In this document: positions 3,334-61,550 of the stretch, piece by piece | How positions within the stretch are numbered: the first letter of the stretch is position 1 | How the letters are laid out: every line of letters starts with the position of its first letter | Assembly: GCF_050920415.1 (NCBI RefSeq) | Contig: NZ_CP169309.1 | Source of the DNA: Escherichia coli | GTDB taxonomy: Bacteria; Pseudomonadota; Gammaproteobacteria; Enterobacterales; Enterobacteriaceae | Direction: 5' to 3' (one strand) | DNA: 64,000 nt | Notes under the pieces: model-generated | Told to the model about the DNA's origin: nothing | The model's input: only the letters and a program-made list of their open reading frames with translations | Database searches by the model: none | Made by a program: the position numbers and the translations under genes

Positions 3334-3416
3334 CCCAGAGGTATTGATAGGTGAAGTCAACTTCGGGTTGAGCACATGAATTACACCAGCCTGCGCAGAT
3401 GCGCAGGTTTTTTTTT
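3334..3416 (+). ncRNA. omrB: OmrB small regulatory RNA
   Basis: Starts CCCAGAGGTATTGATAGGTGA, ends with hairpin CCTGCGCAGATGCGCAGG plus T9; shares 5' and 3' ends with the adjacent copy; lies between galR and aas, where I recall the OmrA/OmrB pair. Confidence 0.85.
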
Positions 3417-3530: not shown

Positions 3531-3618
3531 CCCAGAGGTATTGATTGGTGAGATTATTCGGTACGCTCTTCGTACCCTGTCTCTTGCACCAACCTGCGCG
3601 GATGCGCAGGTTTTTTTT
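3531..3618 (+). ncRNA. omrA: OmrA small regulatory RNA
   Basis: Starts CCCAGAGGTATTGATTGGTGA, ends with hairpin CCTGCGCGGATGCGCAGG plus T8; paralogous to the upstream copy. Confidence 0.85.
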
Positions 3619-37702: not shown

Positions 37703-37779
<77 letters not shown>

Positions 37780-37812
37780 TCACCGTACTGCTTTACTTCA
37801 TCAAATTTTGAT

Positions 37813-37889
<77 letters not shown>

Positions 37890-37922
37890 TCACCGTACTG
37901 CTTTACTTCATCAAATTTTAAT

Positions 37923-37999
<77 letters not shown>

Positions 38000-38032
38000 T
38001 CACCGTACTGCTTTACTTCATCAAATTTTAAT

Positions 38033-38109
<77 letters not shown>

Positions 38110-42432: not shown

Positions 42433-42638
42433 AAAAAAAAGCACCGCAATTAGGCGGTGCTACATTAATCACTATGGACAGACAGGGTAAATGTACAGGA
42501 AGTGAAAAAAGGTAGCTTTGCTACCATGGTCTGAATCGCAGACCAATTGCAAACACAACAACACAACATCACAACCGTAAGCCAAAAGTTCACCAGAACA
42601 CGCATTCCGATAAAACTTTTCGTTCCGGCTCAGGAAGT
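42433..42638 (-). ncRNA. gcvB: GcvB small RNA
   Basis: Minus-strand sequence begins ACTTCCTGAGCCGGAACGAAAAG, contains the GT-rich region GTTGTGATGTTGTGTTGTTGTGTTTGCAATTGG, ends with terminator GCACCGCCTAATTGCGGTGC plus T8; divergent from gcvA. Confidence 0.88.
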
Positions 42639-60053: not shown

Positions 60054-60599
60054 GTGGACGATTTGACCGCACAAGCCTTGAAAGATTTTACTGCACGCTA
60101 CTGCGATGCGTGGCATGAAGAGCATAAAAGCTGGCCGTTAAGTGAGGAACTGTACGGCGTTCCTTCACCGTGCATTATTTCAACCACCGAAGACGCTGTA
60201 TACTGGCAACCCCAGCCGTTTACCGGTGAACAAAATGTAAACGCGGTTGAACGTGCTTTTGATATTGTGATACAACCCACGGTTCATACTTTTTACACGA
60301 CCCAGTTTGCCGGGGATATGCACGCGCAGTTTGGCGATATCAAACTGACATTGCTGCAAACCTGGAGTGAAGACGACTTCCGTCGGGTGCAGGAAAATCT
60401 GATTGGTCATCTGGTGACTCAGAAAAGGCTAAAACTGCCGCCCACGCTATTTATCGCGACGCTGGAAGAAGAGTTAGAGGTCATCTCGTTGTGTAATCTC
60501 TCCGGTGAAGTGTGCAAAGAGACGCTGGGAACACGCAAACGGACGCATTTAGCCTCAAATCTTGCGGAATTCCTTAATCAACTTAAGCCTCTTCTGTAA
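60054..60599 (+). CDS. syd: SecY-interacting protein Syd
   Basis: 181 aa; recognised as Syd. Confidence 0.92.
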
Positions 60600-60809
60600 T
60601 CCAAATACCCCATCTTGTTGTGAGAGATCTCTTACAGACTCTGTAGGAGATCGCCAGGAAATAAGCGAATACTTAAAAAGATAAGAATCGTTATTTTCAT
60701 TTAAAATCAATATATTGCTTGTTAATTCTTAACTTTCATATGAAATTTTCCTTAAGGCATTGTCTGTAAGCGCCTTGTAAGACTTCGCGAAAAAGACGAT
60801 TCTATCTTC

Positions 60810-61177
60810 GTCGACAGGGAGTCAGACAACGAAGTGAACATCAGGATGATGACACTTCTGAAGGACACACCAGGAGGGTGTTTCAGGGAAAGGCTTCTGG
60901 ATGAAGCGAAGAGGATGACGCAGGACGCGTTAAAGGACACCTCCAGGATGGAGAATGAGAACCGGTCAGGATGATTCGGTGGGTCAGGAAGGCCAGGGAC
61001 ACTTCAGGATGAAGTATCACATCGGGGTGGTGTGAGCAGGAAGCAATAGTTCAGGATGAACGATTGGCCGCAAGGCCAGAGGAAAAGTTGTCAAGGATGA
61101 GCAGGGAGCAACAAAAGTAGCTGGAATGCTGCGAAACGAACCGGGAGCACTGTGAATACAGTGCTCCCTTTTTTTAT
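60810..61177 (+). ncRNA. csrB: CsrB sRNA (CsrA-sequestering)
   Basis: Begins GTCGACAGGGAGTCAGACAACGAAGTGAACATCAGGATGATGACAC; at least eight CAGGATG/AGGATGA-type motifs counted by eye; ends with hairpin GGGAGCACTGTGAATACAGTGCTCCC plus T7; between syd and yqcC. Confidence 0.9.
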
Positions 61178-61220
61178 TCCTGCTATCCTTCGCGGCAGTT
61201 TTTCTTATTGAGGTTGCTTT

Positions 61221-61550
61221 ATGACCACTCATGACCGCGTTCGTCTCCAGTTGCAGGCGCTTGAAGCGTTACTGCGTGAACATCAGCACTGGCGAAACGA
61301 TGAACCCCAGCCGCATCAATTTAACAGTACCCAACCGTTCTTTATGGACACCATGGAACCACTGGAGTGGTTGCAGTGGGTGCTGATCCCGCGAATGCAC
61401 GATTTGTTAGATAACAACCAGCCGTTACCGGGCGCTTTTGCCGTTGCACCCTATTATGAAATGGCGCTGGCGACGGACCACCCGCAACGCGCGCTTATTC
61501 TGGCTGAGCTGGAAAAACTGGATGCTCTTTTTGCGGATGATGCGAGCTGA
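61221..61550 (+). CDS. yqcC: DUF446 protein
   Basis: 109 aa; conserved position upstream of truC. Confidence 0.85.
   Translation: MTTHDRVRLQLQALEALLREHQHWRNDEPQPHQFNSTQPFFMDTMEPLEWLQWVLIPRMHDLLDNNQPLPGAFAVAPYYEMALATDHPQRALILAELEKLDALFADDAS

Follow-up and report, generated by a model that had tools for sequence, protein, structure and literature searches.

A 64-kb window of Escherichia coli DNA (the whole stretch analyzed here) holds, between the genes syd and yqcC, an interval packed with GGA motifs. The locus raises the question of whether this interval encodes a small RNA of the CsrB type, as an earlier note on the same DNA had proposed for positions 60810-61177, or whether it is better read as a related RNA, as a purine-rich repeat or leader, or as a set of small proteins. 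CsrB has been characterized since 1997. The best explanation is that window positions 60810-61178 (+) are almost certainly the E. coli csrB gene, encoding the CsrA-sequestering RNA. The identification as csrB is correct, and what it identifies is already known, being a near-identical allele of the K-12 gene.

A scan of the window with all Rfam families placed the CsrB/RsmB model RF00018 at 60819-61178 (+), where all of its positions (1-356 of 356) are matched with a score of 380.9 bits (gathering score 71, E 8.9e-111) and where it is the best model after competition within the Csr/Rsm clan, CL00106. This is the covariance search by which the earlier note had suggested checking its proposal, and the proposal was upheld by this full-length match as well as by synteny with K-12 b4408, covariation and the UvrY palindrome upstream. 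The 5' end at 60810 is the same as the K-12 csrB +1 (GTCGACAGGG), and the annotated K-12 3' end falls on window position 61178. The extent first given for the RNA (60810-61177, about 368 nt) thus had the right start and an end that was short by one base, the gene being 369 nt long. The predicted minimum free energy (MFE) of the RNA is -119.7 kcal/mol (z -4.28), better than that of all 100 shuffles. Every defining feature of the CsrB family and of its E. coli orthologue that can be checked in sequence is present at the locus, and no observation spoke against the identification. The features of the locus are collected in Table 1.

Table 1. Features of the csrB locus, in window coordinates.
Feature	Position	Strand	Basis or remark
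syd (SecY-interacting protein), upstream flank	60054-60599	+	181-aa ORF; Pfam PF07348 (Syd), E 1.8e-72
18-nt palindrome TGTGAGAGATCTCTTACA, putative phospho-UvrY (BarA-UvrY) site by sequence match	60619-60636	+	Centre at -183/-182 from csrB +1
Auxiliary UvrY half-site TGTAGGAGATCG	60642-60653	+	5 bp 3' of the palindrome
IHF consensus match AATCAATATATTG (WATCAANNNNTTR)	60705-60717	+	Exact match; centre near -99
Putative weak sigma-70 promoter	60775-60803	+	-35 TTGTAA (60775-60780), 17-bp spacer, -10 GATTCT (60798-60803)
csrB, 369-nt non-coding RNA	60810-61178	+	RF00018 match, synteny with K-12 b4408, fold
Array of 11 short hairpins with GGA in each loop and GGA-bearing single-stranded linkers between them (sites 2-21)	60839-61132	+	
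GGA sites 20 (61105) and 21 (61123)	61105-61125	+	CsrA sites that would shield decay-initiating cleavage, by K-12 numbering
Unstructured segment CGAAACGAACC, which would hold the RNase E "necessary cleavage site"	61131-61142	+	CsrD-dependent decay pathway
Intrinsic terminator	61143-61175	+	11-bp stem with 7 GC pairs and 4-nt loop (61143-61168), then T7 (61169-61175)
yqcC (DUF446), downstream flank	61221-61550	+	109-aa ORF; Pfam PF04287, E 1.3e-34
46-aa ORF	60834-60974	+	Over csrB
62-aa ORF (the example of the earlier note)	60752-60940	-	Over csrB
45-aa ORF	60883-61020	-	Over csrB
70- to 71-aa ORF (approximate length)	61017-61232	-	Over csrB

The two flanking genes are annotated likewise in K-12 and in a strain that is identical over the interval, and csrB lies on the same strand as both. 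The intergenic gap between them measures 621 bp (60600-61220) and is 100% identical to that of three E. coli genomes. A syd-yqcC gap of 210 bp had been stated earlier, which is wrong and was the sole interpretive error of the earlier note; 210 bp is the spacer from the syd stop to the csrB +1 (60600-60809), and the K-12 spacer has the same length. None of csrA, uvrY, barA and csrD lies within the 64-kb window.

Other RNA genes were observed elsewhere in the window. GcvB, at 42433-42638 (-), reaches its Rfam gathering score with 199 bits, and two tandem full-length matches to OmrA-B (RF00079) at 3334-3415 (+) and 3531-3618 (+), with 86 and 97 bits, are presumably omrA and omrB. At 37703-38109 (-), tRNA-Met(CAT) is present as four identical genes in tandem, spaced by 110 bp. 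Four copies are also found in the only 100% match, strain MFDS1022581, and three in the next five listed records (99.4-99.6% identity, 2013C-4282 among them), so that the array looks like a recent tandem expansion by one unit.

The 368-nt csrB stretch carries 22 GGA triplets on the plus strand and 2 on the minus strand, and it is the GGA-densest stretch of the window, where 368 nt contain 4.9 GGA on average and the runner-up on the plus strand has 13. Motif expectations were derived from 2000 dinucleotide-preserving shuffles, and the extended motifs exceeded every one of them. CAGGA[TCA]G was observed 8 times (0.28 expected, shuffle maximum 3), AGGATG 7 times (0.33 expected, maximum 3), AGGATGA 6 times (0.12 expected, maximum 2) and CAGGATG 5 times (0.09 expected, maximum 2), the last two being the motifs with which the RNA had been described as packed, a description that these counts confirm. 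The bare GGA count (22 compared to 15.4 ± 2.5 in the shuffles) is less decisive, since GG and GA are already enriched as dinucleotides.

The display of these motifs was evaluated with the Rfam consensus structure mapped onto the sequence and with thermodynamic folding. Of the 12 consensus hairpins, 11 have GGA in their loops (CAGGAUG, AGGAG, UGGAU, AGGAC, AGGAU, CAGGAUG, CAGGAAG, AGGAU, AGGAA, AAGGAU and UGGAAU) and the twelfth is the terminator; in terms of triplets, 11 of the 22 GGA fall in consensus hairpin loops. The MFE fold leaves 17 of the 22 fully unpaired, 16 of the 22 fit into a local hairpin whose stem has 3 bp or more, and only two, site 11 and site 22 (in the terminator), are located in stems. 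Over the Boltzmann ensemble, the mean unpaired probability is 0.81 for GGA bases and 0.35 for other bases. The loop context of the motifs, named earlier as a point to be checked, was therefore found to be that of hairpin loops or single-stranded linkers. The global MFE fold also predicts a long-range helix in which RNA positions 16-27 pair with 275-280 and neighbouring bases; the Rfam consensus has no such helix.

Conservation was assessed in a MAFFT alignment of the window sequence with orthologues from 13 other enterobacterial genera that was not fitted to any structure, and pairing was scored on the Rfam hairpins plus three extra local hairpins. Across the 14 genera, 94.0% of cells are standard pairs, compared to 35-50% when the partners are slid by 1-3 columns, and 26 of the 68 stem pairs have changes on both sides. 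The covariation score of 0.258 was reached by none of 500 shuffles (0.148 ± 0.008). Mean column identity is highest for GGA (0.95), followed by stems (0.86) and other columns (0.75), and for 17 of the 21 GGA sites inside the alignment, 12 or more of the 14 genera have the triplet in the same columns. Read from the aligned sequences, the combination of covariation and conserved GGA columns is the signature of a structured RNA in which the selected feature would be the displayed GGA.

The region upstream of the gene contains the elements expected from published work on K-12. Zere et al. (2015) used ChIP-exo and DNase I footprinting to show that phosphorylated UvrY binds TGTGAGAGATCTCTTACA, centred at -183/-182 of E. 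coli csrB (PMC4682653); the window palindrome is identical to the published site in sequence and in distance to +1, with its centre between -183 and -182. The same study describes an auxiliary TGTAGGAGA located 5 bp downstream of the palindrome (PMC4682653), a copy of which occupies window positions 60642-60650. In the phylogenetic footprint this auxiliary element extends to TGTRRGAGATCG and is kept in 13 of 13 genera, though it lies outside the sequence used as probe. Additionally, a second inverted repeat, GATCTCTTACAGA / TCTGTAGGAGATC, was observed at 60626-60652 with 92% complementarity; it shares sequence with the palindrome's right half and with the auxiliary TGTAGGAGATC, giving two overlapping dyad registers.

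A putative IHF site was placed by earlier work between two UvrY crosslinking zones (PMC4682653), and the IHF consensus match of the window, one of four in the 64 kb, falls there. Its core, ATCAA..TT, is conserved across genera, and two of the differences from K-12 (60711 and 60714) are N positions of the consensus. A strict sigma-70 consensus scan of 60500-61300 returned no promoter, which fits an activator-dependent csrB promoter. Phylogenetic footprinting revealed conserved islands in an otherwise variable region, namely TTGTAAGAC (from 60775), GATTCTAT (from 60798) and GTCGACAGG at +1, and it is this conservation that suggests TTGTAA and GATTCT as the probable -35 and -10 hexamers.

The 3' end of csrB has been studied as a decay module. 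Vakulskas et al. (2016) numbered 22 GGA sites in CsrB, with site 22 in the terminator (PMC5027483), and the count and numbering in the window agree with these 22 published sites. In that study, RNase E initiates decay by cutting an unstructured stretch of 9 nt that immediately precedes the terminator and in which two neighbouring A residues are essential; the cut is prevented by CsrA bound to sites 20 and 21, and CsrD overcomes this protection (PMC5027483). Window and K-12 sequences are the same throughout 61105-61142, the part that runs from site 20 up to the terminator. All 14 genera have GGA at both of these sites, and AAACG-AACC in the pre-terminator segment is near-invariant among them. 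The strong terminator that had been noticed at the 3' end was recovered both by a terminator scan and as an Rfam helix, with its 11-bp stem and T7 tract; in the 14-genus alignment, 95.7% of the cells of this stem are paired and two pairs are compensatory.

The terminator has been the target of an insertion in a few strains. Of 5426 complete E. coli genomes, 12 have an IS200/IS605 element (tnpA) of about 712 bp within the terminator's U-tract, for example Z0117EC0005 (1575-2283). The insertion point corresponds to window positions ~61173/61174, and it changes T7 to T5 followed by GTG while the hairpin is left intact.

Three other readings of the interval were weighed against csrB. The RNA could be the paralogue CsrC or a further RNA of the Csr/Rsm clan (CL00106), as these follow the same GGA-hairpin logic, have the same kind of UvrY-dependent upstream palindrome and belong to one Rfam clan. 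However, RF00018 is the winner of the clan competition from end to end of the model at its 380.9 bits, the length of 369 nt and the 22 GGA are those published for CsrB, the syd-csrB-yqcC synteny is that of K-12 csrB, and the palindrome is the csrB version TGTGAGAGATCTCTTACA and not the csrC version TGTGAGACATTGCCGATA. CsrC (RF00084) and the other clan members were rejected on score, length, synteny and palindrome type, and the probability left to them is vanishingly small. Equally negligible is the chance that the interval is a purine-rich or low-complexity repeat that arose by chance and is without function, or that it serves yqcC as a 5' leader or attenuator. The position on the same strand as yqcC, 43 bp before its start codon, would suit a leader, and the simple scan found no consensus sigma-70 promoter for a separate transcript. 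A mere repeat does not account for extended motifs above all 2000 shuffles, for the fold z of -4.28, or for covariation and near-invariant GGA across 14 genera. The leader or attenuator was rejected because a strong T7 terminator separates csrB from yqcC and because csrB has its own conserved, probable promoter and activator site; an IS element also lies between csrB and yqcC in 12 genomes.

The remaining reading, that the region codes for one or more small proteins and that the GGA periodicity is a by-product of coding, starts from four ORFs of 45-71 aa that overlap csrB. For two of these, 60834-60974 (+) and 61017-61232 (-), many E. coli records carry a "hypothetical protein" entry, and the corresponding protein clusters have 11 and 636 members. 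A Pfam search of the four ORFs matched no family, and in the 13 other genera their frames are broken: start codons are gone, spans differ by non-multiples of 3, and stops occur after 1-22 codons. Where the 60834-60974 (+) ORF stays open in orthologues, frameshifts make the peptide depart from the E. coli sequence after some 9 residues. Additionally, the substitutions are of a compensatory base-pairing kind and not codon-like, and K-12 curators annotate an ncRNA at the locus. The protein-coding reading of the four ORFs was rejected as effectively refuted, with no Pfam match and frames broken in orthologues, and is highly improbable. The earlier remark that ORF callers place small spurious ORFs here was accurate, as these ORFs have no Pfam match and no conservation and two of them are deposited as proteins. 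The example chosen for it, 60752-60940 (-), exists and is unconserved, but its exact sequence is absent from the public protein collection; the general claim on ORF callers holds because the two other csrB ORFs are deposited as "hypothetical protein". Such CDS features on csrB are found in older GenBank deposits, for example OKU99256.1 and AFS55826.1. The RefSeq/PGAP record NZ_CP027579.1, from a strain identical over the interval, has no feature in the 621-bp gap and leaves csrB blank; the missing csrB feature is an annotation gap, not biology.

With csrB as the preferred reading, the comparison with K-12 MG1655 (b4408, NC_000913.3 2924156-2924524, minus strand) shows the locus order syd-csrB-yqcC-truC-yqcA, the 5' end, the length, the 22 GGA sites, the UvrY palindrome at -183/-182 and the pre-terminator decay segment to be common to both. 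The two genes differ by 3 substitutions in 369 nt. At 60861, next to GGA site 3, the window has A and K-12 has C. At 60876, the window has G and K-12 has U, which turns loop 4 from CAGGAUG in K-12 into CAGGAGG. At 61149, the window has A, forming an A-U terminator pair, while K-12 has G (G-U), and A is found in all 13 other genera. Four more substitutions lie upstream of the gene (60616, 60711, 60714 and 60718), in the vicinity of the UvrY and IHF sites. The change in loop 4 is argued to be neutral because the position after GGA varies among genera, being U, C, A or G.

The gene and its target are nearly universal in the species. A csrB match was found in 5425 of 5426 complete E. coli genomes, and the 120-nt 5' segment that includes the 60861 and 60876 variants is at least 99% identical to the window in 2229 of these 5425 and 95-99% identical in 3196. 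The K-12 csrA sequence occurs as a single copy in 5425 of the 5426 genomes and is at least 99% identical in 5423. Among the 5426 genomes labelled E. coli, one lacks a csrB match and one, which may be the same, lacks a csrA match; a mislabelled or atypical assembly is the probable cause. A further csrB match comes from a record labelled as a plasmid, probably a mis-typed replicon.

Outside E. coli, the RF00018 orthologues include CsrB of Citrobacter, Klebsiella, Enterobacter, Kluyvera and Edwardsiella and RsmB of Erwinia, Dickeya and Pantoea. Like the window gene, the Enterobacterales orthologues are full-length model matches beside the same 18-nt palindrome, with 21-25 GGA, a conserved 3' third and a conserved terminator. 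Unlike these features, their stem sequences, linker lengths and hairpin number vary, and the RNAs of Erwinia, Pantoea and Mixta are about 300-310 nt long. The Rouxiella CsrB has a flipped orientation with a palindrome spacing of 177 nt.

The E. coli paralogue CsrC (RF00084) lies at a different locus. It is shorter than CsrB and has fewer GGA sites. Like CsrB, it is a CsrA sponge that is activated by UvrY from an upstream inverted repeat and is subject to decay through CsrD and RNase E (PMC4682653, PMC5027483), whereas its palindrome TGTGAGACATTGCCGATA is weaker and its expression shows no IHF dependence (PMC4682653). The RsmY/RsmZ/RsmX RNAs of Pseudomonas and CsrB/C/D of Vibrio share the sponge principle and the GacA/UvrY-type upstream palindrome, but they are separate RNAs that are shorter than E. 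coli CsrB. The one Vibrio locus that was run against RF00018 gave a weak match of 86 bits. Pseudomonads are reported to be without CsrD (PMC5027483).

The UvrY palindrome was also used as a probe across species. The exact 18-nt palindrome, and not the RNA, was searched in one genome per species, which returned at least 120 loci with at least 121 occurrences; the listed loci belong to Enterobacterales, Vibrionaceae, Shewanella and a few others. Enough flanking sequence was available for 114 listed occurrences, and these were scored for a segment with at least 12 GGA located 150-550 nt from the palindrome. Such a segment was found downstream, on the palindrome strand, in 80 of the 114 listed occurrences (median 22 GGA compared to 2 TCC), and on the other side in flipped orientation in 28 of the 114. 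Five of the 114 were without one and one more could not be judged. The palindrome therefore adjoins a GGA-dense, strand-asymmetric segment in 108 of the 114 listed cases among the Gammaproteobacteria. Genomes of Vibrio, Photobacterium and Shewanella contain several copies each of the exact E. coli 18-mer, which flanks GGA-dense RNAs there. All 19 loci run through Rfam have a full-length CsrB match adjoining the palindrome (86-380 bits), and the palindrome lies 181-185 nt from the RNA in the 11 Enterobacteriaceae loci that have both in the same orientation, compared to 183 nt in the window.

Orphan palindromes, with no GGA-dense segment within 550 nt on either side, were observed in a Hahellaceae MAG, a Kangiellaceae MAG, a Pseudomonadales isolate and one other locus, together with a second copy (+ strand) in Shewanella atlantica. 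They are not surprising, because about 600 Gb of sequence, counting both strands, should contain roughly 9 matches to an 18-mer by chance, and they may be such chance matches or non-Csr targets of UvrY/GacA-type regulators. Enterovibrio nigricans, Photobacterium indicum and one more locus have, in addition to the GGA-dense segment downstream of the palindrome, a second one on the same strand, 150-550 nt upstream, with 22-25 GGA per 400 nt. Going by GGA density and strand, this suggests tandem Csr-type sRNA genes in those Vibrionaceae.

Altogether, the identity of csrB, its structure, motif display, conservation and cis-elements are shown by sequence analysis, and how the gene would work can be taken by analogy from the literature on the near-identical K-12 gene. 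Expression of CsrB and sequestration of CsrA are known for the K-12 allele (PMC5027483, PMC4682653). The untranslated transcript of 369 nt would fold into about a dozen short hairpins, which together with their linkers would present the 22 GGA to CsrA. One RNA would hold many CsrA dimers at once and titrate CsrA off its mRNA targets, and this titration would set the activity of the Csr global regulon. Synthesis would depend on phosphorylated UvrY which, bound to the palindrome at -183/-182, would activate the weak csrB promoter, helped by IHF bending at about -99. Removal would begin when RNase E cuts the unstructured segment next to the terminator on its 5' side; CsrA on GGA sites 20 and 21 would block this cut, and CsrD would relieve the block. 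CsrA binding, the action of UvrY and IHF and decay through CsrD and RNase E would thus be expected in this strain on the strength of the K-12 work.

The finding carries little weight for discovery, as the gene is a near-identical allele of a long-characterized K-12 gene. Its practical value lies in annotation: genome scans should label 60810-61178 as csrB and drop the ORFs, because RefSeq/PGAP leaves the gap blank and older deposits place "hypothetical proteins" there. For the family, a simple rule, which is not new, is that an exact copy of the 18-nt UvrY palindrome points to a GGA-dense RNA next to it (108 of 114 listed cases). At the level of strains, it is unlikely, though less so than any of the rival readings of the interval, that the window allele, by its three changes in the RNA and four upstream, shifts the set point of CsrA sequestration or the transcription of csrB relative to K-12; if it did, the shift would offer a handle on strain-level tuning of the Csr system.
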